Positions 8,643 to 19,174 of a stretch of DNA of 35,278 bases are shown piece after piece (within the stretch, counting starts at the first letter, position 1; each line of letters starts with the position of its first letter). The notes under the pieces were generated by a model. The model saw only the letters and a program-made list of their open reading frames with translations. It was not told where the DNA came from and did not search any database. The position numbers and the translations under genes were made by a program. This DNA comes from a virus, in the IMG/VR virus record IMGVR_UViG_3300027848_000003; one strand, 5' to 3'.

Positions 8643-9232
8643 GAGCTTCGTCCAGCGGTTTAATAATGACGAACCCGCGTAGCAAATCAGAAACATTTAG
8701 CAAAACCACTTTAACCTTTGTTGAAGATTGGCTTAAAGAACAGATTTACGGAATCAAAAAAGATTTTTCAAGCAAGTACACGCAAAAAGGAAATCTATTA
8801 GAAGATGAGGCAATAGATAAGGCTATTGAATGGCTTGATTTGCCGTTTATTCTGAAAAACGAACTCCCATTATCGGACACGCATTTTACAGGAACGCCTG
8901 ATCTTATCTTGGAAGATGAGGTATTGGATATTAAAGTGAGTTGGGACGCTTTTACTTTTCCTCTTTTTGATAACGAGATACCTACAAAGGATTATTTCTA
9001 TCAATTACAAGTGTATATGGCTTTGACGGGCAAGCGCAAAGCAAGACTTGTGTACGTTCTTTTGAACACGCCCGAAGAAATATCTCCGTGGGAATTAAAA
9101 CACGATTACAATGAGCTGGATAAGAAGTACCGAATCAAAACCTTTACTATTGAATATGATGAGGTATTGATCGCCGACCTTCGTAAAAGAGTTGACCAAA
9201 TTAGAGAATATTTATTAACTATTAAATTATAA
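8624..9232 (+). CDS. PD-(D/E)XK exonuclease, YqaJ/lambda-Exo-like recombination nuclease
   Basis: RASSSGLIMT (N-terminal YqaJ-like motif), GTPDLILEDEVLDIKVS (D...D/E-x-K) and YFYQLQVYMALTG (Q-x-x-x-Y). Confidence 0.7.
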   Translation: MEKFKVRASSSGLIMTNPRSKSETFSKTTLTFVEDWLKEQIYGIKKDFSSKYTQKGNLLEDEAIDKAIEWLDLPFILKNELPLSDTHFTGTPDLILEDEVLDIKVSWDAFTFPLFDNEIPTKDYFYQLQVYMALTGKRKARLVYVLLNTPEEISPWELKHDYNELDKKYRIKTFTIEYDEVLIADLRKRVDQIREYLLTIKL

Positions 9233-9236
9233 AACA

Positions 9237-9554
9237 ATGAGCAGTTTATCAGAGATCTACCTTAAGGTAGAAACATTAAAAACTTTAGCCGATACTTTGG
9301 CAAAGAAAGGAGAAAAAGGAATTAGTATTACAATTTCCACAAATGAAGAAACGAATGAATATGGACAAAATATTTCGGCTTTTGTAGCTCAAACCAAAGA
9401 GGAAAGAGATGCAAAAAAAACACGTTTTTATGTAGGAAACGGAAAAGTTTTTTGGAACGACGGGAATATTACCAACGCAGCTAAAAAAGAAGAAACACAC
9501 AATGCAACCCCAGAGGGGCAAGTTGCAGACGAGGAAGATGATCTTCCTTTTTAA
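9237..9554 (+). CDS. SSB-like protein with acidic C-terminal tip
   Basis: The C-terminus ADEEDDLPF mirrors the D-D-D-I-P-F protein-interaction tip of bacterial and phage SSBs. It follows the annealase and exonuclease genes. Confidence 0.45.
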   Translation: MSSLSEIYLKVETLKTLADTLAKKGEKGISITISTNEETNEYGQNISAFVAQTKEERDAKKTRFYVGNGKVFWNDGNITNAAKKEETHNATPEGQVADEEDDLPF

Positions 9555-9573
9555 TATCCCCAAGATACCAATT

Positions 9574-9600
9574 AAACCGCCTATCTGGGCGGTTTTTTTG
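9574..9600 (+). terminator. Rho-independent terminator ending the early rightward operon
   Basis: aaaccgcc-tatctg-ggcggttt forms an 8-bp stem followed by a T run (ggcggtttttttg). Confidence 0.75.
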
Positions 9601-9610
9601 TTTTATATAA

Positions 9611-9849
9611 GATTTGCAACAGTTGCAACTGTTGCAACCCCCTTAGTTGCATATAGAATATACTATTTATAAGGGTTGACAAAGATTTGCAACCGAGTTG
9701 GTTGCAAGTTGGTTAGTAGTAATTTTTTTTTTAAAATTAAAAAATATTTTTAAAAAACACGATTTGCAACCAACTTAGTTGTAAGTATTGATTTTATAGG
9801 GTTTACGGAGTTTTTAGGGGTTGCAAATGGTTGCAACCGAGTTGCAACT
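9611..9849. repeat. Iteron cluster: 7 exact TTGCAAC, 2 TTGCAA[G/A] and about 3 degenerate copies around a 37-nt A/T-only core (9721..9757); putative origin of replication or centromere-like site
   Basis: Exact copies start at 9614, 9623, 9632, 9687, 9764, 9831 and 9842. The 10-nt palindrome AGTTGCAACT occurs at 9621..9630 and 9840..9849. GATTTGCAAC occurs three times and TTGCAACCGAGTTG twice. The cluster is non-coding and lies immediately upstream of the replication genes. Confidence 0.6.
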
Positions 9850-9910
9850 TAAAAAAGTGCTTTATTTTGTAGGAATTTGATATTAATGTTATTTATATTG
9901 ATTAATTTAT

Positions 9911-9918
9911 TATATTTG
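9911..9918 (+). promoter_or_regulatory. Bacteroidota-type -7 promoter box TATATTTG upstream of the replication module
   Basis: TAnnTTTG match in an intergenic region. It has the same extended TATATTTGT as the boxes at 7087 and 7162. Confidence 0.45.
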
Positions 9919-9926
9919 TACTTCAA

Positions 9927-10012
9927 GGTGTGGAAACTGAAATCATTATTATTCCCGATAGGATTTTTTCGACCTCCACACCCGAAGAATGAATATCGGG
10001 ATTTTTATTTTT
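9927..10012 (+). ncRNA. Structured leader or small RNA with a terminator-like hairpin
   Basis: GGTGTGGA (9927..9934) pairs with TCCACACC (9975..9982). TCCCGATA (9953..9960) pairs with TATCGGGA (9994..10001) and is followed by TTTTTATTTTTT. The order of the four arms is pseudoknot-like or mutually exclusive. Confidence 0.35.
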
Positions 10013-10019
10013 TATTTAT

Positions 10020-10229
10020 ATGAAACTATTTATTACAAATAAACCAGATCTTGACACGAACAAGGAATCGGCAATAATACACAAGCTGGCCTTTGCTGAA
10101 ATGTCAACAAGTATAGCTGAGGGTTTTATACCGTTGGAAATATTCATAAGCTACTATTCACAAGATTTTTTATTTGAGTTTGTAAATAAAAAGAATGAAT
10201 TGTTCTTTTATAAATTCACTCAAATATGA
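10020..10229 (+). CDS. Hypothetical protein (69 aa)
   Basis: ATGA overlap with the primase gene start. Confidence 0.5.
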   Translation: MKLFITNKPDLDTNKESAIIHKLAFAEMSTSIAEGFIPLEIFISYYSQDFLFEFVNKKNELFFYKFTQI

Positions 10230-12508
10230 TAGCACTTTCACGATGTTTACGTTTACTGGACGAGGGGTTTTCGCTCATAACAGTATCGAACGATAAAGTA
10301 CCTAACTATGCTTGGCTAAGCCAACAATCAAAACAGTTGTCAAAAACTGAATTTGAAAAACGTTTTAATTATAAAGGCGGGTACATAAAAAAAGACGGTA
10401 CGGAAATGCCAGCAACCGAACACGTTGGAATAGTTACTGGGTTCGGCTTTCTTGAATGTTTGGATGTTGATCTAAAAGTATTCAGCACGGCCAAAGAACA
10501 AAAAGAATGGTGGGACGAGTTTATTTCTTTTGTTGAGGATAATATTTTAGATTTTCACGATAAGTTTGTAATTACTAAAACAAGAAATGCTGGCTTTCAT
10601 ATTCTTTACAAATCAAAAAGAGTTGAAGGAAATCGTAAACTCGCAAAATTAAAAGGACATAAAGAGGCTATACTTGAAACACGTGGACGGTGGGGTTATG
10701 TGTTTATTTATGATAATTTTCTAAAGGATAAAACATATAACGATATTGATTTTATAAGTGATGAGGATCGGGATATACTTTTAAACATTGCAGAAACCTA
10801 CAATTATATTGATCCGGTAAGATTAGATGTACCTAAAAAAACAAAATCCGACTTCAAGACAAGTGAAGGAGATATTACTCCGTGGGACGACTTTAATCAA
10901 AAAAATAAGGTTTGGGATATTGTAAGCGATGATTTTACAATCGTTAGAAACCTTAATAATAAGTACATAATAAAGCGACACAATGCTGAAAGTGCGCATA
11001 GCGGTTATATTTATAAAGACGAGGATTTGATGTACCTTTTTTCAACCGGTACAATCTACGAACACGAAAAACAATACTCCGCATTTTCTGCATACGTCCG
11101 TAAAAATTTCAACGATGATTTTTCAGAAGCTACAAAGCAAATCTATAAAGATGGATATGGAAGCCGGATAGTAAGAAAGGAAACCGAACCAAAGGAAAAA
11201 ATAATAATTAATAAAAAAGACCTTGAGTTTCCTATTGAGATATTTCCGCAGCCAATACAGACTTATATTTATGAATGTGCCACAACTTTAAATAGTAACG
11301 TAGATTATATGGGTTGCTCGATGCTTTGGTTAATTTCCCTTTGTATAGGGAACAGCTTAAAAATAGAGGTAAAAAAAGGGTGGAACGAAACCGCCGCGAT
11401 ATGGATGGCCGTTGTAGGAAAAGCCGGAATAGGAAAAACGCCTTCAATATCAAATATCATATTCCCTTTGGAAAAGCAAAACAATCGGGAAATTTCAAAC
11501 TACATAAAGGAATTTGAAAAATATGAATACTACGAAAACCTAACGGCAAAAGAAAAAAAGGAACATCCAGAAACCCATAAACCAGTGAAAAAACAATTCA
11601 TTGCAAACGATATTACACTCGAAGCATTGGTTTCTTTACACCAAGAGAATGATAATGCAGTAGGGGTTTTTAAAGATGAGCTGGCTGGCTGGTTTAAGGA
11701 TATGAATAAATATAAACAGGGTTCGGATCTTGAATTTTGGTTGTCTACGTGGTCAGGCCAAAGCGTAAACCTTAACCGTATAACGCGAGCCGGTTCTTTT
11801 GTTGCAAGTCCTATGATTCCAATTTTAGGAGGTATTCAGCCGAGTATATTTAATTCATTTTATACCGAAGAAAACAAGAATAACGGTTTTATGGATAGAA
11901 TGCTTTTATCATATCCCGACCTTGAAGTGGAAAAATACAACGAGGACGAAATGAATTATAATACTATACAATGGTTTCACGATACCGTAGTTTCATTTTA
12001 CGAAACAATAAAACATAAAATGATCGTACGTAACAAGGATGGCCAAATAGAAAGCCACGTTGTTAAATTCAATAAGGAATCCAAAAAAGAATGGATTAGA
12101 ATATTTAACGAAATAACCGAAATTCAAAATAGCGATTCGGAAAATGAATATATGAAGTCTATGCTGCCAAAACAAAAATCATATATCCCGCGCTTTGCAT
12201 TAATGATTAATACAATGGATGGGTTTTTATATCAAAATAAAATACCGAGTGAGATTACCAAAGTAAGTATTTTGAAAGCTGAAAAACTAAGTAAGTATTT
12301 TATTGCAATGGCGAAGAAAGTGAAAGTTGATAGCATTGCTTCTGCGGACATAAAAAAAGTAATACGAAAAAACGAGAACAAAACCAATAAGGAAAAATTT
12401 GAGATACTGTTTAAAGGAAATCCCGAACTTAATATTAAAGAGGTTTCTGAGCAGTTGGGAATTACCACGCAGGCTATTTATAAATACAAAAAAGAATTAG
12501 GGTTATGA
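10226..12508 (+). CDS. Bifunctional primase-polymerase (prim-pol) / DUF3987-type P-loop replicative helicase with C-terminal HTH
   Basis: N-terminal LECLDVDLKV (D-x-D) and AGFHILYK (prim-pol motifs). Central Walker A VVGKAGIGKTP and Walker B-like VGVFKDELAGW. C-terminal IKEVSEQLGITTQAIYKYKK is an HTH. Confidence 0.8.
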   Translation: MIALSRCLRLLDEGFSLITVSNDKVPNYAWLSQQSKQLSKTEFEKRFNYKGGYIKKDGTEMPATEHVGIVTGFGFLECLDVDLKVFSTAKEQKEWWDEFISFVEDNILDFHDKFVITKTRNAGFHILYKSKRVEGNRKLAKLKGHKEAILETRGRWGYVFIYDNFLKDKTYNDIDFISDEDRDILLNIAETYNYIDPVRLDVPKKTKSDFKTSEGDITPWDDFNQKNKVWDIVSDDFTIVRNLNNKYIIKRHNAESAHSGYIYKDEDLMYLFSTGTIYEHEKQYSAFSAYVRKNFNDDFSEATKQIYKDGYGSRIVRKETEPKEKIIINKKDLEFPIEIFPQPIQTYIYECATTLNSNVDYMGCSMLWLISLCIGNSLKIEVKKGWNETAAIWMAVVGKAGIGKTPSISNIIFPLEKQNNREISNYIKEFEKYEYYENLTAKEKKEHPETHKPVKKQFIANDITLEALVSLHQENDNAVGVFKDELAGWFKDMNKYKQGSDLEFWLSTWSGQSVNLNRITRAGSFVASPMIPILGGIQPSIFNSFYTEENKNNGFMDRMLLSYPDLEVEKYNEDEMNYNTIQWFHDTVVSFYETIKHKMIVRNKDGQIESHVVKFNKESKKEWIRIFNEITEIQNSDSENEYMKSMLPKQKSYIPRFALMINTMDGFLYQNKIPSEITKVSILKAEKLSKYFIAMAKKVKVDSIASADIKKVIRKNENKTNKEKFEILFKGNPELNIKEVSEQLGITTQAIYKYKKELGL

Positions 12509-14309: not shown

Positions 14310-14419
14310 GCTACAGTATAGAAGTGAAAAACAATTTAGGATGTGGCTTTTTAATTGGATTTGCCTTCGTAACTGCAATAATTATATTCATAATAATAGC
14401 TAATAAACTAATAAATTGA
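14306..14419 (+). CDS. Small membrane protein (37 aa)
   Basis: GCGFLIGFAFVTAIIIFIIIA is a TM segment. It is coupled at both ends (an ATGA overlap upstream, and a TTGA overlap with the ParB-like gene start). Confidence 0.4.
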   Translation: MSYSIEVKNNLGCGFLIGFAFVTAIIIFIIIANKLIN

Positions 14420-14964
14420 AAAGCAATAAGGTAACGGACTTAACATTTGACGATAAGAATTTCAATAAGGGTACACAATACGGGAAATCCCTTATGGAGA
14501 AATCACTTTCTAAATTTGGAGCAGGGCGTTCAATCCTGATAGATAAAAACAATAAAATAATAGCAGGAAATAAAACCACCGAGAACTTCGCGGAACTAGG
14601 ACTTGAAAAAGTTACTATTGTAGATGTTAGCGGTGATACTCTTGTGGCTGTTCGTAGAAACGATATTGACTTAGATACTCCCGAAGGCAGAGAGTTTGCC
14701 CTTGCAGATAATCAAACAGCAAAGGTTAACATTGAATTTGACTTTGGAACGTTGGAAAGTGAAATTGATGAAGGTATATTGGAAGAATGGGGAATAAATA
14801 CGGACGAAGAGGATGTGAAATTAACACCAGAAGATAAAGACCTTTCAGATACATTAAAGGAAACTTTTGAGGTGATCGTTCAATGTGGCAATGAAGATGA
14901 GCAAGAAGCAGTATTTAATAAATTAACAAATGATGGTTTAGTATGCCGAGTTTTAACATTGTAA
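14416..14964 (+). CDS. ParB N-terminal (ParB/Srx-like nuclease) domain protein
   Basis: GRSILIDKNNKIIAGNKTTENFAELGLEKVTIVDV resembles the ParB-like box (I-x-V-D-x-x-x-x-I-I-x-G-[NH]-x-R-x-x-A-x-x-x-L-G). Acidic C-terminal half. TTG start overlaps the upstream stop. Confidence 0.55.
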   Translation: MKSNKVTDLTFDDKNFNKGTQYGKSLMEKSLSKFGAGRSILIDKNNKIIAGNKTTENFAELGLEKVTIVDVSGDTLVAVRRNDIDLDTPEGREFALADNQTAKVNIEFDFGTLESEIDEGILEEWGINTDEEDVKLTPEDKDLSDTLKETFEVIVQCGNEDEQEAVFNKLTNDGLVCRVLTL

Positions 14965-15641
14965 GAGAAATTGAAGCTAAAGACACCTTCAGGGTTAAAA
15001 GCGTTGTAGGCGCATTTGATTTACAAACACAACATATAAAAGAGCACTTCAAAGGCAATATAGATATTGATGGCAAGGATTGGAATGTAGGTTTAATTGT
15101 CGGTAGTTCAGGAAGTGGAAAATCCACAATAGCAAATGAAGTTTTTGGAGATTGTTTTTGTAATTTCGAATACCAAGAAAGTTCTGTGATAGATGATATG
15201 CCGAAAGGGAAAGGAGTTAAAGATATAACGAAAGTATTTACAAGTGTGGGTTTCGCAAGCCCACCGAGTTGGTTAAAGCCTTATGGGGTATTATCTAATG
15301 GTGAACGAATGAGATGTGATTTAGCAAATGCGATATTGCAGGAAAAAGAGATTATAGCTTTTGATGAATTTACTTCAGTAGTAAATAGGGAGGTTGCAAA
15401 AACAGGAAGTTACGCAATAAGTAAAGCGGTTAGAAAATTAGACAAAAAATTTATAGCTGTAAGTTGTCATTATGATATAAAAGAATGGTTGGAGCCTGAT
15501 TGGATATATGATACAGATAAACAAGAGTTTTTTTTTGTGCTGGCGAAATCAAGCGACCGGAAATTAAACTCGAAATCTATCAAGCAAACAAAGCAGATAA
15601 AGAAAGAAATTGGAAGCCATTTAAAAAGTATCATTATTTAG
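14943..15641 (+). CDS. ABC-type ATPase (zero-frame product); likely continues by a -1 shift at 15528..15536 into the GNAT frame
   Basis: Walker A GSSGSGKST, ABC signature LSNGERMR, Walker B EIIAFDEF and H-loop VSCHYD. The zero-frame tail after the T9 run (VLAKSSDRKLNSKSIKQTKQIKKEIGSHLKSIII) is low-complexity and Lys/Ser-rich. Confidence 0.7.
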   Translation: MPSFNIVREIEAKDTFRVKSVVGAFDLQTQHIKEHFKGNIDIDGKDWNVGLIVGSSGSGKSTIANEVFGDCFCNFEYQESSVIDDMPKGKGVKDITKVFTSVGFASPPSWLKPYGVLSNGERMRCDLANAILQEKEIIAFDEFTSVVNREVAKTGSYAISKAVRKLDKKFIAVSCHYDIKEWLEPDWIYDTDKQEFFFVLAKSSDRKLNSKSIKQTKQIKKEIGSHLKSIII

Positions 15642-16057
15642 ATGAGAAATTACTCAAATCAAGTAGGCAGTTTTTAGGGGTAGTTAACGGTGAGGTTGTG
15701 GCTCATACAGGAGTTATACAATTCCCAATGAGAAAAGGATGGAAAAGAATTCATAGGTTAGTTGTTCTGCCAGATTATCAAGGAATCGGAATAGGAATGA
15801 GATTTATTAATGAGGTTTCAGAGATAGTTAAAAAAGAGGGCTTTAATGTTAATTTAACAACTACAACGCCAAGTTTAATCAATGCAATGTGTAGGGATAA
15901 GAAATGGCTATTAAAAAGAGCGGGTAGGATGGGAAATGAATCTAAAAATTGGGCAAAATACGGAACAGGTGATAAGGTTAAAAATGAAAAAACATCTAAA
16001 AAAATGGGGAAATCAGATAGCTCAAACAGAATAACATACTCTTTTAATTTTAAGTAA
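15521..16057 (+). CDS. GNAT acetyltransferase domain encoded in the -1 frame; no start codon before 15698
   Basis: The frame is open from 15521. WKPFKKYHYLDEKLLKSSRQFLGVVNGEVVAHTGVIQ...RLVVLPDYQGIGIGMRFINEV carries GNAT strands and motif A (Q-x-x-G-x-G). The track ORF 15698..16057 (GTG) would lack the N-terminal strands. Confidence 0.65.
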   Translation, partial: TRVFFCAGEIKRPEIKLEIYQANKADKERNWKPFKKYHYLDEKLLKSSRQFLGVVNGEVVAHTGVIQFPMRKGWKRIHRLVVLPDYQGIGIGMRFINEVSEIVKKEGFNVNLTTTTPSLINAMCRDKKWLLKRAGRMGNESKNWAKYGTGDKVKNEKTSKKMGKSDSSNRITYSFNFK

Positions 16058-16074: not shown

Positions 16075-16431
16075 ATGAGCAAGAAATTAGACAATCTTAA
16101 GAAAGGGGTTAAGTTCCCAATACAAGATCCCACAAAGGGAGGGCGTCCTGTATCTATACGTAACCAATTAAAAGACCTACTAGAAGCGGAAGGAAACGTA
16201 ACCATGCCAGCGAATCAAGTTGTAAAGGTTAATGAAGATGGGAGCGTAGTTTTAAAACTACCTACTCAAATGCAGCTTGCAATGAAGCTATCCAGTTGGG
16301 CAATGAGCAAGAAGGGCAATGATAGCCTGAAAGCTATTCAGATGATAATGGAGCAGATAGATGGTAAGCCGAAACAAGACGTAGAGGTGACTACCAATAA
16401 AAAGAAACCCCCGAAAAAACACTTTGAGTAA
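16075..16431 (+). CDS. Terminase small subunit candidate
   Basis: Its position is immediately upstream of TerL and overlapping it. It has an N-terminal F-x-x-x-x-x-x-G-G-R-P motif (KFPIQDPTKGGRPVS) and a basic C-terminus. Confidence 0.5.
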   Translation: MSKKLDNLKKGVKFPIQDPTKGGRPVSIRNQLKDLLEAEGNVTMPANQVVKVNEDGSVVLKLPTQMQLAMKLSSWAMSKKGNDSLKAIQMIMEQIDGKPKQDVEVTTNKKKPPKKHFE

Positions 16432-17758
16432 ACCAATAGTAACATCAAAGAAATACAAGCCCCTTTGGGATTGGTCACTAGTTGAAGAAAAGCTGGAGAA
16501 AGACACAACTAAAGAAGAACAAGACTACTATACTAAACTCTCTAAGGTTGATAAAGTGATAATGACAGGCGGGAGGTATTCAGCAAAATCCTTCGAGGTT
16601 GCAGATTGGGCAGTCGATGGAACTATACACTACGATTATAGAATACTATACACGAGATTCACCAACGTTTCAATGAGCGATAGCGTTATTCCAGAGATTC
16701 AAGAAAAGATAGCGATTAACCACTACGAGGATTATTTGACATTCGCAAATAATAAATACAAATCACAATGCGGCGGCGGACTAATATCGTTTAAAGGAAT
16801 TAAGGCGGGATCTGGCGGACAGACGGCAAACCTAAAATCATTAAAAGATTTTAATGTACAAGTAACAGACGAAGCAGAAGAAATCCCAGACTATAAAACG
16901 TTTGAAAAGGTGTACTTCTCTATACGCTCAAATGACCGAAGAAACTTATCTATTTTAATCCTAAACCCAACCACTACAGATCATTGGATATTTGAGGAGT
17001 TCTTTAGAAAGCGAGAAGTACCAGAGGGATTCAACGGCATTAAAGATGAAATCTTATACATTCACACAAGCTATTTAGACGTTGATAGTAGGGTAAATCC
17101 GCCTAATATAATAGCAGCATTTGAGAAGATGCGGGACAACCGCCCAAAGGATTATAACGAGATTGTCCTCGGAGGTTGGATTAGCGACCTGCAAGGGCAA
17201 CTGTACAAGCGCGAGGATGTACAAACATTCAGTATAAAGGATTTTAACCTAGAAAATGTTGAAGCTGTTGTTTGCTTCATAGATGTAGCTGATCGAGGTA
17301 CAGATTCCTTGAGTATGCCAATTGGCTTTTTAGTTGGGGATTTAGTTTACATTTACGATTGGTATTTTAGCCAAGATAATCAAGACATAACCATCCCAGA
17401 GATAGCATTTAAGTCTATTGAGAATAAGATAGAACACATGGCGGTAGAGGTGAACGGTGTAGGATTGGGCTATCTTGAAGAACTACAAAAGAATGTCGGA
17501 TGTATAACATATCCCTTTAGTCAGCAGACTAATAAGCACAGCCGTATGATTCAGAATAGCGGATTTGTACGTAATTATATGGTATTCCGAGATGACTATG
17601 AGGCTGGTTCTATGTACGACAAAGCTATGCGTGAGATGTTTGCGTATATGAAAGACGATAAATTAAACAGGAAAGGCTCTTACAATGACGATGCACCAGA
17701 TAGCGCAACTGGTCTTTGGATAACGTGCAAGGATTTGTTTCCAGATAAATGGATGTAA
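16424..17758 (+). CDS. terL: Terminase large subunit (PBSX/terminase_6-like)
   Basis: Walker A-like VIMTGGRYSAKSFEV and Walker B VQVTDEAEEI, followed by C-terminal nuclease-like FIDVADRGTDS and YNDDAPDS. It has a TTG start 5 nt before the TerS stop, and the first in-frame ATG lies after the conserved KYKPLW region. Confidence 0.9.
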   Translation: MSKPIVTSKKYKPLWDWSLVEEKLEKDTTKEEQDYYTKLSKVDKVIMTGGRYSAKSFEVADWAVDGTIHYDYRILYTRFTNVSMSDSVIPEIQEKIAINHYEDYLTFANNKYKSQCGGGLISFKGIKAGSGGQTANLKSLKDFNVQVTDEAEEIPDYKTFEKVYFSIRSNDRRNLSILILNPTTTDHWIFEEFFRKREVPEGFNGIKDEILYIHTSYLDVDSRVNPPNIIAAFEKMRDNRPKDYNEIVLGGWISDLQGQLYKREDVQTFSIKDFNLENVEAVVCFIDVADRGTDSLSMPIGFLVGDLVYIYDWYFSQDNQDITIPEIAFKSIENKIEHMAVEVNGVGLGYLEELQKNVGCITYPFSQQTNKHSRMIQNSGFVRNYMVFRDDYEAGSMYDKAMREMFAYMKDDKLNRKGSYNDDAPDSATGLWITCKDLFPDKWM

Positions 17759-17770
17759 TTAATAAATAAT

Positions 17771-17971
17771 TTGTATAACTCAAAAAAAAATTGTAGTATT
17801 GCAAACAGGGTGTTGTGTCTTTGTCCGAAGAAAAAGTTTCTAGGAGAAGATTTAGTTGATGGTAAAGTACTTTGTTCTTGTGGAAATATGAATGATTTGA
17901 GCAATGGAAAGTACTATCCAAACAAACTATCACCATCCTATCAAAGCACTCTAAATAAGAAAGGTACATAA
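17771..17971 (+). CDS. Cys-rich small ORF (CLCP...CSCG), in the same frame as the portal and separated from it only by a TAA
   Basis: Open frame with possible TTG (17771), GTG (17810) or ATG (17888) starts. It has a C-x-C...C-x-C pattern. Whether it is an independent gene or a detached portal N-terminus is unclear. Confidence 0.3.
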   Translation: MYNSKKNCSIANRVLCLCPKKKFLGEDLVDGKVLCSCGNMNDLSNGKYYPNKLSPSYQSTLNKKGT

Positions 17972-17983
17972 GGTACGACCCAA

Positions 17984-19174
17984 ATTAAGCTGAGTAATTG
18001 GTTTAAAAATTTCTTTTTTGAACGTGACCGAGAAGGTAACGTCTGGTATGAAATCGGCAATAAAGATGCCGACTGGGAGCTTGGCAATAAGCTCGACTGT
18101 TTATTAACAAATCCAGTAGCATTTCGTTGTGTCGATTTAATAAGCGACTTATTTAGCCAAGCTAAGTTCACTATTAACGATAGTGATAAACACCCAATAC
18201 TAGACCGACTTAATAATCCAAACCCCTTACAATCTAAACAAGACTTTTTAAGAGAATACTTATTCTTTAAGTATGCCTATGGTTGGGTATATCAATACCC
18301 AATAAAGCCAGAAGGGATAAAAGAGCCTAGCGCAATCTACAATCTTGACCCTTCAAAAGTAAACTACAATAGCGATTTCCCTACTCGACTAATCTTTGAG
18401 AGTGGGGATGTCGATTCTATCAATAAAAAGCAATTCAGATACAAAGAGCAGAAGCAAGATAGAACGTTTAACGTTGAGGAGGTAATTCCGTTCTTTGATA
18501 TTGCGAACGGGCTATCTGACAACTTCTTATTAACAGCACCTTCCAGACTAAAGGCAATTTCCAAAAACATTAAGAACATAAACACAGCACTAAAGGCAGA
18601 GAGCAATGCTTTAGAGAAGGCGGGGCGCTTCATTGTTTCGTCATCTGTTAAGGGCAATGCTATCTCAAGACCGCTAGATCCAAAAGAGAAAACAGAAATA
18701 GAGAACTCATTTAAAGGTTTCGGATTAGGAAAGAGCAAGGGAAATGTGACGGTAACAACAGCAGGGCTAGACGCTATTTCATTGCACGTACCTATGACAC
18801 AACTAGGAATACCAGAGAGTGTAGCCGCTAATTCAATGGTAATAATGAACACCTTTGGCGTGCCTAGAGAGTTGTACACCTTAGACAAAAGCGGTGCAAC
18901 TTGGGAGAATCAAAAGACTGCCTTTGTTAATCTTGCCCAAAACGTTGTGCAAAATCAATTAGATGACTTTTGTAATTCTTACAAATCATTCTTTGAGATT
19001 GAGGGGGATTTTAAGGCAACGCTATACCACTTGCCTATTATGCAATATATCGAAGATCAGAAAGCAGATAAAGCATTGAAGCTATCTACTGCCATACGCA
19101 ACCTCTCTGGTACGAATATAGAGCCTAATCAATTCCTAGAATCAATGGGTATTAATATTGAAAGCAATGAATAA
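17984..19174 (+). CDS. Portal protein (start uncertain: no ATG/GTG/TTG between 17972 and 18745; ATT at 17984 proposed)
   Basis: The frame is open from 17972. IKLSNWFKNFFFERDREGNVWYEIGNKDADWELGNKLDCLLTNPVAFRCVDLISDLFSQAKF... is portal-like, and the ORF sits between TerL and the prohead protease. The track shows only the 142-aa tail (18746..19174). Confidence 0.7.
   Translation: MKLSNWFKNFFFERDREGNVWYEIGNKDADWELGNKLDCLLTNPVAFRCVDLISDLFSQAKFTINDSDKHPILDRLNNPNPLQSKQDFLREYLFFKYAYGWVYQYPIKPEGIKEPSAIYNLDPSKVNYNSDFPTRLIFESGDVDSINKKQFRYKEQKQDRTFNVEEVIPFFDIANGLSDNFLLTAPSRLKAISKNIKNINTALKAESNALEKAGRFIVSSSVKGNAISRPLDPKEKTEIENSFKGFGLGKSKGNVTVTTAGLDAISLHVPMTQLGIPESVAANSMVIMNTFGVPRELYTLDKSGATWENQKTAFVNLAQNVVQNQLDDFCNSYKSFFEIEGDFKATLYHLPIMQYIEDQKADKALKLSTAIRNLSGTNIEPNQFLESMGINIESNE

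Follow-up and report, generated by a model that had tools for sequence, protein, structure and literature searches.

How is a gene read when its two conserved halves lie in different frames, and what could its product do when it is encoded just ahead of the packaging genes of a tailed phage? The question is raised by positions 14,416 to 16,057 of a viral DNA of 35,278 nucleotides (IMG/VR record IMGVR_UViG_3300027848_000003, the whole of which is called the window here), where a gene for a ParB-like protein is followed by a gene for an ABC ATPase whose continuation, a GNAT acetyltransferase domain, is found in the −1 frame at a run of nine T (T9). As far as sequence comparison can tell, the change of frame marks a site of conserved recoding rather than an error, which is the most solid of the new results of this analysis, and two products, ABC-only and ABC–GNAT, are probably made in the manner of dnaX. 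We propose, with confidence about evenly divided for and against, that the locus is a late two-gene module in which slippage would supply both isoforms and the ParB-like protein would assist the transfer of an acyl group to DNA, or to a DNA-bound target, before packaging.

The frame change at the T9 run

The predicted ABC-only product is the zero-frame translation of the open reading frame (ORF) at 14943..15641 (features are on the + strand), which comprises 232 amino acids, about 198 of them an ABC cassette and 34 a non-conserved tail. The −1 frame stays open between about 15521 and 16057, and the GNAT part read from it at 15536..16057, RLVVLPDYQGIGIGMRF, is matched by Pfam Acetyltransf_1 at E=1.6e-8, in agreement with the initial annotation, which had placed a GNAT domain behind a −1 frame change; PHROG, the alignment with a protein of Pseudoalteromonas phage SL25, AF2 models and fold matches to GNATs lend it further support. 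Only the T9 run at 15528..15536 (GAG TTT TTT TTT GTG), at the junction of the two domains, lets both frames be joined with homology kept, and a U_UUU_UUU heptamer lies in register within it. Joining there (14943..15536 + 15536..16057) gives a trans-frame product of 371 amino acids, the very size that had been predicted for the fusion. This conceptual protein matches phrog_11143 ('unknown function') from end to end at E=9e-96, and the in-frame SL25 protein aligns with its residues 1-371.

Downstream of T9 it is the protein of the −1 frame that is conserved (..FFC.GE.KRP.I.LEIY..W..F.KYHYL) and that matches the in-frame homologues, SL25 among them; the zero-frame tail is not conserved, and its stop codon falls within the codons of the HYL motif of the −1 frame. 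No usable start codon is present in the −1 frame before GTG 15698, and a start at this position would cut off the invariant region of W224/H231/Y232. The 232-residue zero-frame ORF recurs without change on 12 contigs of about 35 kb, which different projects produced with different assemblers (JGI 3300032435, ENA ERZ27247430), and the two contigs that were fetched are identical to the window throughout 14416-16057. In 14 IMG/VR loci with a product 65-86% identical, the −1 change always falls at the same residue and T9 is invariant; the clade holds 12 distinct T9 junction sequences (the window and 11 others), in which the flanking synonymous sites vary. Three to four distinct genes of this T-run clade (P0001, P0002, P0005) carry T10 and are in frame, and neither T8 nor T11 was seen in the clade. 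The T10 alleles are interspersed among the T9 alleles on a neighbour-joining tree, so that the long run appears to be kept whichever frame results.

Two routes at T9, the insertion of one additional U by RNA polymerase (read as FFF-C) or a ribosomal slip of −1, would yield the same protein. Bacterial RNA polymerase is known to slip on runs of at least nine A or T (PMC5009743). We favour transcriptional realignment over ribosomal slippage for the long runs because of this property, because RNAalifold returned no conserved downstream RNA structure for the 12 T9-clade junctions, and because T9 and T10 interchange.

The same junction in other lineages

Across 179 distinct loci, the junction carries such signals in several forms. 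A frame change is needed in 24 loci, 23 of which require −1 and one +1, at six different motifs, and a further 75 carry a homopolymer of at least six bases at the junction. The −1 change falls at CAG GTT TTT C (G_GUU_UUU) in Streptococcus prophage 315.4, MismyG, Javan420, Javan141 and Lactococcus P335, where a CCCCCAC that begins 5 nucleotides past the site can pair with a downstream GUGGGGG, the first pair being a compensatory U-A in MismyG; in Oenococcus phage unk162 it is needed at another sequence. The IMG/VR locus L023 carries C_CCA_AAG in register, followed after a 7-nucleotide spacer by a hairpin, GGAGCC-AAC-GGCUCC, with a stem of six GC-rich base pairs. The hairpin or stem lies 5 to 7 nucleotides downstream in L023 and the Lactobacillales phages, with z of about −2.4 to −2.5 in two cases and a weaker value in one. 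For these heptamer-plus-stem cases, ribosomal −1 frameshifting would be the natural reading. Homopolymers recur elsewhere: CGT TTT TTT, with U_UUU_UUU in register, requires −1 both in the complete chromosome of Alicyclobacillus sp. ALC3 and in a metagenome-assembled genome (MAG) of Eubacteriales, an A9 run requires it in a Gastranaerophilales MAG, and in locus L147 −1 is still needed despite T10.

The main in-frame clade (69-74 distinct genes, about 50% identical to the window) has an invariant A10 at the same place (GGG CAA AAA AAA AAT AGA), and in 68 of 69 genes a stop codon follows directly in the −1 frame (QKKK*). The predicted default product is accordingly reversed between clades, the short form being expected from the T9, T7 and A9 genes and the long form from the A10 and T10 genes. 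The single +1 case (L025, 4550-4670, 67% identity) has its frame change at A6GT6 (GAAAAAAGTTTTTTATAC); either a defect in this copy or another mode of recoding might explain it.

Three observations count against recoding as a general property of this family. The T9 clade shares no conserved downstream structure, as reported above. About 80 of the 179 loci have no slippery motif at the junction, and two isoforms are therefore not universal. Codon bias alone would yield the A10 run with P of about 0.65 per sequence given the residues QKKN, for which reason A10 is counted as supporting evidence only. The homopolymer might instead be a switch at the level of DNA, T9 and T10 toggling the GNAT fusion off and on without any slippage in expression. 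The interspersion of the two alleles on the clade tree and the high rate at which long homopolymers mutate by ±1 fit such phase variation, but we hold it to be distinctly unlikely: T9 is present in every assembly of the window genome, 12 distinct T9 sequences stand against three to four with T10 and none with T8 or T11, the heptamer-plus-stem signals of other clades cannot phase-vary, and runs of at least nine slip in transcription anyway (PMC5009743). That a mistake of sequencing or assembly has split a true in-frame fusion, or that the frame change is the trace of a dead gene with a GNAT pseudogene, is hardly credible. In favour of this view, homopolymers are error-prone, and the close T10 relatives are in frame, as are most family members. 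Against it, the 12 contigs that carry the same 232-residue ORF come from several projects and assemblers, 12 distinct diverged sequences retain T9, −1 is needed at the same junction with other motifs in isolate phage genomes and a complete bacterial chromosome, and residues of the −1 frame are conserved 5' of any start codon.

The enzyme, its ParB-like partner and their neighbourhood

The product that recoding would complete is a compact enzyme of two domains. The ORF at 14943..15641 has the full ABC motif set that the initial annotation had listed (Walker A GSSGSGKST, signature LSNGERMR, Walker B IIAFDEF, H-loop CHYD) and is matched by Pfam ABC_tran at E=1.6e-7. Across 60 homologues, no variation is seen in the residues of Walker A and B, the signature (LSNGE) and the H-loop or in GNAT motif A, and the CoA-binding motif YQGIGIG, which is a motif A of the Q/RxxGxG/A type, is invariant or nearly so. 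The AF2 model of the full-length protein is confident and shows two domains (pLDDT 86, pTM 0.81), that of the GNAT alone reaching pLDDT 81. A fold search of the full model against PDB returned generic ABC cassettes alone and no two-domain match, the ABC half folding like ABC nucleotide-binding domains, and in BFVD the Leptospira LE4 orthologue was the sole match. The GNAT model alone gave 535 matches at E<=0.001, and the best 50 of these 535 are canonical acetyl-CoA GNATs, with RimI, Ard1/Naa50 and PaiA among them; profile and model together place the domain among generic small GNATs and in no informative subfamily. In a Treponema MAG (L140, 4088-4528), a second, out-of-frame GNAT-like piece with 35% identity to residues 202-368 follows an intact in-frame ABC–GNAT gene and is possibly a decayed tandem duplicate.

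An ABC transporter is marked by a fused or partner transmembrane permease, and no permease domain is found in the ABC–GNAT protein (Pfam) or among the neighbour genes of the eight neighbourhoods inspected. The GenBank labels given to relatives, 'ABC transporter', 'siderophore transporter' and 'DNA modification methylase', are motif-level mis-annotations. The view of the initial annotation that the architecture belongs to no named system is upheld: phrog_11143 has no function attached, PADLOC gave no specific component match for the enzyme, only generic ABC-motif matches (mad3 at 2.9e-9 over 40 residues), and in the literature searched there was no paper on a ParB/ABC–GNAT module or on its frameshift. 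For a ParB orthologue, the PADLOC match is to a model of a type II methyltransferase, within its ParB part.

The first gene (14416..14964, TTG start, 182 amino acids) had been called ParB/Srx-like, an assignment that holds at the level of the family. The window protein matches PHROG 620/498 at E of about 6e-13, 13 of 16 orthologues match Pfam ParB_N (PF02195), and a profile of the orthologues matches solved ParB/Spo0J/Noc N-domains at 1e-11; the window copy on its own falls below the Pfam ParB_N threshold. It has lost the NPR and GxxR motifs, reading NFNKGT and GNKT where most orthologues carry NNPR and G(H/N)xR, and these motifs are kept in most of the family. Its divergent N-domain is followed by a W-rich linker and by a conserved C-terminal mini-domain (..DLSD..FEVIVQCGNEDEQEAVFNKLTNDGLVCRVLTL), which in the family spans 40 amino acids and ends in CRVLTL. 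No helix-turn-helix (HTH) was matched by Pfam, the profile matches spanning the N-domain alone, and no ParA-like gene is present in the listed neighbourhoods; a canonical chromosome or plasmid ParB would have an HTH DNA-binding domain, a ParA partner and parS. Homology links it to the ParB parts of DNA-modifying enzymes: hhalign aligns the ParB_N domain and linker with the N-terminus of a ParB–N6_N4 DNA methylase at 99.9% probability and with gp51 of Bacteroides phage BS-TP3 at 99.5%. The idea that the C-terminal mini-domain is what remains of a methyltransferase's first strand-helix-strand was dropped, because hhalign aligns only ParB_N and linker (residues 4-128). In BS-TP3 (L208, 2501-5055), the stand-alone ParB_N gene gp51 stands before a ParB_N–Methyltransf_23 fusion, after which come terS–terL, so that ParB and ParB–methyltransferase occupy the slot held in the window by the ABC–GNAT module. 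This bears out the earlier suggestion that ParB-like domains are partners of phage DNA-modifying enzymes. The typical fusion partners of ParB folds in phages are methyltransferases, ASCH-like domains and even acetyltransferases (PMC12704722), and an HTH-less phage ParB activates a T-dioxygenase, acting on thymine, specifically on double-stranded DNA (PMC13229309).

The two genes overlap by 22 nucleotides (14943..14964), as originally annotated, and a search for the same neighbourhood elsewhere, which had been recommended, recovered the ParB_N gene with the same 22-nucleotide overlap with the ABC gene in 98 of the 99 related loci examined. The pairing is therefore more than chance, and the overlap probably reflects translational coupling. 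The GNAT stop is separated by 17 nucleotides from a probable small terminase subunit gene (16075..16431, 118 amino acids, assigned by position and with no family match), which overlaps by 8 nucleotides the gene for a large terminase subunit of the Terminase_3 type (16424..17758; PHROG terminase large subunit, with Pfam Terminase_3 on the same gene in locus L110); from these gaps the module and terS–terL are predicted to form one transcription unit. The first downstream ORF belongs to either of two TerS-position families in 77 of 100 unique loci and is then followed by TerL (Terminase_3). The first family (31 loci) matches PHROG small-terminase families, and the second (46 loci), which matches only a PHROG of unknown function, is taken as TerS by position. 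On gene order, the module consists of two genes of tailed phages that would be late and co-expressed with terS–terL. The three-domain operon of the initial annotation, next to the terminase, stands as to its domains and its position, but it is a two-gene module and not an operon of three genes.

The family is large and widely distributed, with 7,977 of 8,000 scored candidates at E<=1e-10 and hosts that include Streptococcus (S. pyogenes), Lactococcus, Gordonia, Leptospira, Pasteurella, Planctomycetota, Bacteroidota and archaeal MAGs. A contig search with a single protein as query gave no close relative, and when 22 kb of the window was compared at the DNA level with 50,697 phage records, no near-identical match came up. 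In Streptococcus and Oenococcus phages, ASCH-domain genes lie directly 3' of the module (L001 6131-6508, L113 3617-3985, L115 3629-4006, L112 3651-4031), and in two IMG/VR loci, L038 and L063, phrog_625 ASCH-like ORFs are the first downstream. Relatives of the enzyme that have no ParB partner are found in Burkholderia phage phiE255 (L106, 3908-5640) and a Porphyromonas phage (L108, 3989-5592); each has a tiny ORF upstream, is translationally coupled to a Formyl_trans_N formyltransferase and is sited after the tail genes, the place of com-mom in Mu. They look like a second, distinct context for the ABC–GNAT enzyme.

Some features of neighbouring genes may be recorded here. Inteins were noted in a radical-SAM-like gene with Intein_splicing and LAGLIDADG matches (L116, 3318-5204) and in a Terminase_3 large subunit (L123, 5999-7098). 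The window portal gene (17771..19174, phrog_12 match) is open for about 400 amino acids from 17972 and has no ATG, GTG or TTG before 18746; it is preceded in frame by a Cys-rich ORF of 66 amino acids, which ends in a single TAA at 17969-17971 and has an A9 run (17782-17790) near its start. The layout is the same in the independent assemblies L110 and L111, and the related loci have diverged too far to show where the portal begins; the gene may use a non-canonical start, depend on read-through of the stop, or be a further case of recoding. A T10 run at 9723..9732 lies within a gap of about 1 kb without long ORFs (9232 to 10226), upstream of a DUF3987 primase/helicase gene (10226..12508).

Predicted function and relation to known systems

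Our best guess, made from homology and gene order, is that the module acetylates DNA, or a target bound to it, at the time of packaging, in a reaction gated by ATP and assisted by ParB. Gene 1 would provide a ParB_N-fold adaptor without a DNA-binding HTH, and gene 2 a compact ABC ATPase that continues into a canonical GNAT of the acetyl-CoA type. Standard decoding of T9 would give the 232-residue ABC-only protein, and a −1 event (one U added by RNA polymerase, or ribosomal slippage on U_UUU_UUU) the ABC–GNAT protein of 371 residues. If the ABC domains dimerise on ATP, the ratio of the isoforms would set the number of GNAT heads per dimer. The ParB-like protein may dock through its C-terminal mini-domain and, by analogy with the phage methyltransferases and T-dioxygenases, help the enzyme to engage double-stranded phage DNA. 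The GNAT would then move an acetyl or acyl group to an amine of DNA, for instance cytosine N4, or to a DNA-bound protein, just before packaging.

DNA-directed acetylation is ranked first because the ParB partner is homologous to that of the ParB–methylases, because of the slot shared with BS-TP3, because of the literature on phage ParB proteins, and because of the ASCH neighbours. ASCH proteins hydrolyse N4-acylcytosines, N4-acetylcytosine among them (PMC6972931). Four observations pull the other way: the window ParB copy has lost the nucleotide-binding GxxR motif; the nearest GNAT folds (RimI, Ard1/Naa50, PaiA) are protein N-terminal or small-molecule acetyltransferases and not nucleic-acid enzymes; the ASCH linkage is limited to one host group, the Lactobacillales, and the two ASCH-like cases; and the formyltransferase-coupled relatives without ParB would fit a broader role in amine acylation that does not require DNA. 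In its most far-reaching form, which we consider unlikely, the proposal would describe a new DNA-modification machine, in which the ParB adaptor loads an ABC dimer with one or two GNAT heads, a nucleobase is N-acylated (for example to N4-acetyl-deoxycytidine), slippage sets the head count, and the ASCH neighbours of some phages read or erase the mark.

The main rival to the DNA-directed reading is a protein acetyltransferase that acts on a host protein of defence or of the nucleoid, or on a phage packaging or head protein, with ParB and ABC as mere regulators or scaffolds. Acetylation of a host protein has an example in AcrVA5, which acetylates Cas12a. Expression late and alongside structural genes would suit this reading, as would the best GNAT fold and profile matches, which include RimI, Ard1/Naa50 and the protein acetyltransferase HP0935. 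Yet the fold neighbours of a GNAT do not predict its substrates, a point made for Mom (PMC13219725), the tight link to a ParB subfamily otherwise joined to DNA methyltransferases points to DNA, and anti-defence genes are usually early and not part of a packaging operon; taken together, a protein substrate has a minor but real share of our expectation.

Transfer to RNA, either TmcA/NAT10-like, as ATP-dependent formation of N4-acetylcytidine (ac4C), or in the way of the GNAT toxins that acetylate aminoacyl-tRNA, would account for the logic of an ATPase joined to a GNAT. ASCH proteins, which neighbour the module in Lactobacillales phages, also erase tRNA ac4C (bioRxiv 10.64898/2026.02.27.708502), and the formyltransferase to which the ParB-less relatives are coupled has a fold that also acts on Met-tRNA. 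We nevertheless regard an RNA substrate as improbable, as Pfam detects no TmcA helicase, DUF1726 or tRNA- or RNA-binding domain, the comparison with NAT10 gives E=0.11, and the ParB partner is of the kind associated with DNA methylases. A packaging accessory, in which ParB and an ABC dimer would mark or clear the packaging-start DNA for terminase and the GNAT would be regulatory or vestigial, is suggested by gene order, since in at least 77 of 100 loci the module lies directly 5' of a gene at the TerS position and of terL. The cooperation of ParB on DNA with SMC, an ABC-type ATPase, is established biology and counts in its favour too. This role is decidedly improbable given that the catalytic and CoA-binding motifs of the GNAT are invariant, that the ParB-less relatives are not beside the terminase, and that many phages with the same terminase type do without the module.

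DNA-directed acetylation is thus retained as the preferred reading, and the module deserves attention on several counts. The ParB/ABC–GNAT pair is among the commonest uncharacterised modules of tailed phages and prophages, it is routinely labelled 'ABC transporter' or 'DNA methylase', and its enzyme is split or truncated by gene callers in many genomes. The conserved slippage site represents a clean new case of recoding, with two predicted isoforms from one gene and a default that would be flipped between clades. Because it is linked to ParB and shares its slot with ParB–methyltransferases, the module is a prime candidate for a new way of modifying DNA or DNA-bound proteins at packaging with the use of ATP and acyl-CoA, which would bear on restriction evasion and on phage engineering. 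It is carried by cultured, tractable systems, namely Lactococcus P335, the S. pyogenes prophage 315.4, Leptospira LE3/LE4 and Alicyclobacillus ALC3.

Of the systems invoked at the outset for comparison, two are analogies only. TmcA/NAT10 shares a P-loop ATPase fused to an acetyl-CoA GNAT, and with it the logic of an ATP-driven remodelling of the substrate for a poor nucleophile, but its ATPase is of the helicase type and not an ABC cassette, and its DUF1726 and the tRNA-binding domains that flank GNAT_acetyltr_2 are not detected in the module (Pfam). Homology was rejected, the GNAT profile matching NAT10 chains at E=0.11 within motif A alone, over 28 residues. Mom of phage Mu, which modifies adenine in DNA, is likewise a late-expressed phage protein of GNAT fold, and its W...HY in helix 1 and Arg in strand 4 are superficially alike, W48, H58, Y59 and R111 being important residues of Mom (PMC13219725). 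Mom differs in that it has no CoA-binding Q/RxxGxG motif and uses Gly-tRNA and not acyl-CoA (PMC13219725), carries an HTH-like insertion and has no ABC or ParB partner. Homology to Mom was rejected as well, on an hhalign probability of 0.4%, the presence of the CoA motif here and the lack of a Mom-like insertion in the secondary structure of the GNAT model; the Mom structure 8BV8 is not among the best 50 of the 535 fold matches.

Closer counterparts are the ParB_N fusions to N6_N4 or Methyltransf_23 methyltransferases (PMC12704722) and the ParB-dependent T-dioxygenases (PMC13229309), which share with the module an HTH-less ParB_N. With the ParB–methylases it has in common a homologous ParB_N and W-rich linker, and the same slot before terS–terL in BS-TP3, and with the ParB-dependent modifiers a ParB that is a separate, cognate partner protein. 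Unlike them, it has an ABC ATPase–GNAT as effector, which would need ATP and presumably acyl-CoA, and a ParB with a family-specific C-terminal mini-domain, the window copy of which is without GxxR. As regards expression, gene 2 resembles dnaX (tau/gamma), the Thermus dnaX with A9, Shigella mxiE and the phage tail chaperone G/GT, which give a long and a short product, as is predicted here. It shares with them a homopolymer or X_XXY_YYZ motif at a domain boundary, with E. coli dnaX a −1 frame that stops immediately (in the A10 clade), and with the rule for transcriptional slippage its runs of at least nine (PMC5009743). It departs from these genes in belonging to another family, in a default product that differs by clade and in signals that vary by lineage. 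Judged from sequence, what appears to be new is the slippage at this junction together with the architecture of the module, and the known kinds to which it would be related are the ParB-partnered modification modules of phages and the slippage of the dnaX type.

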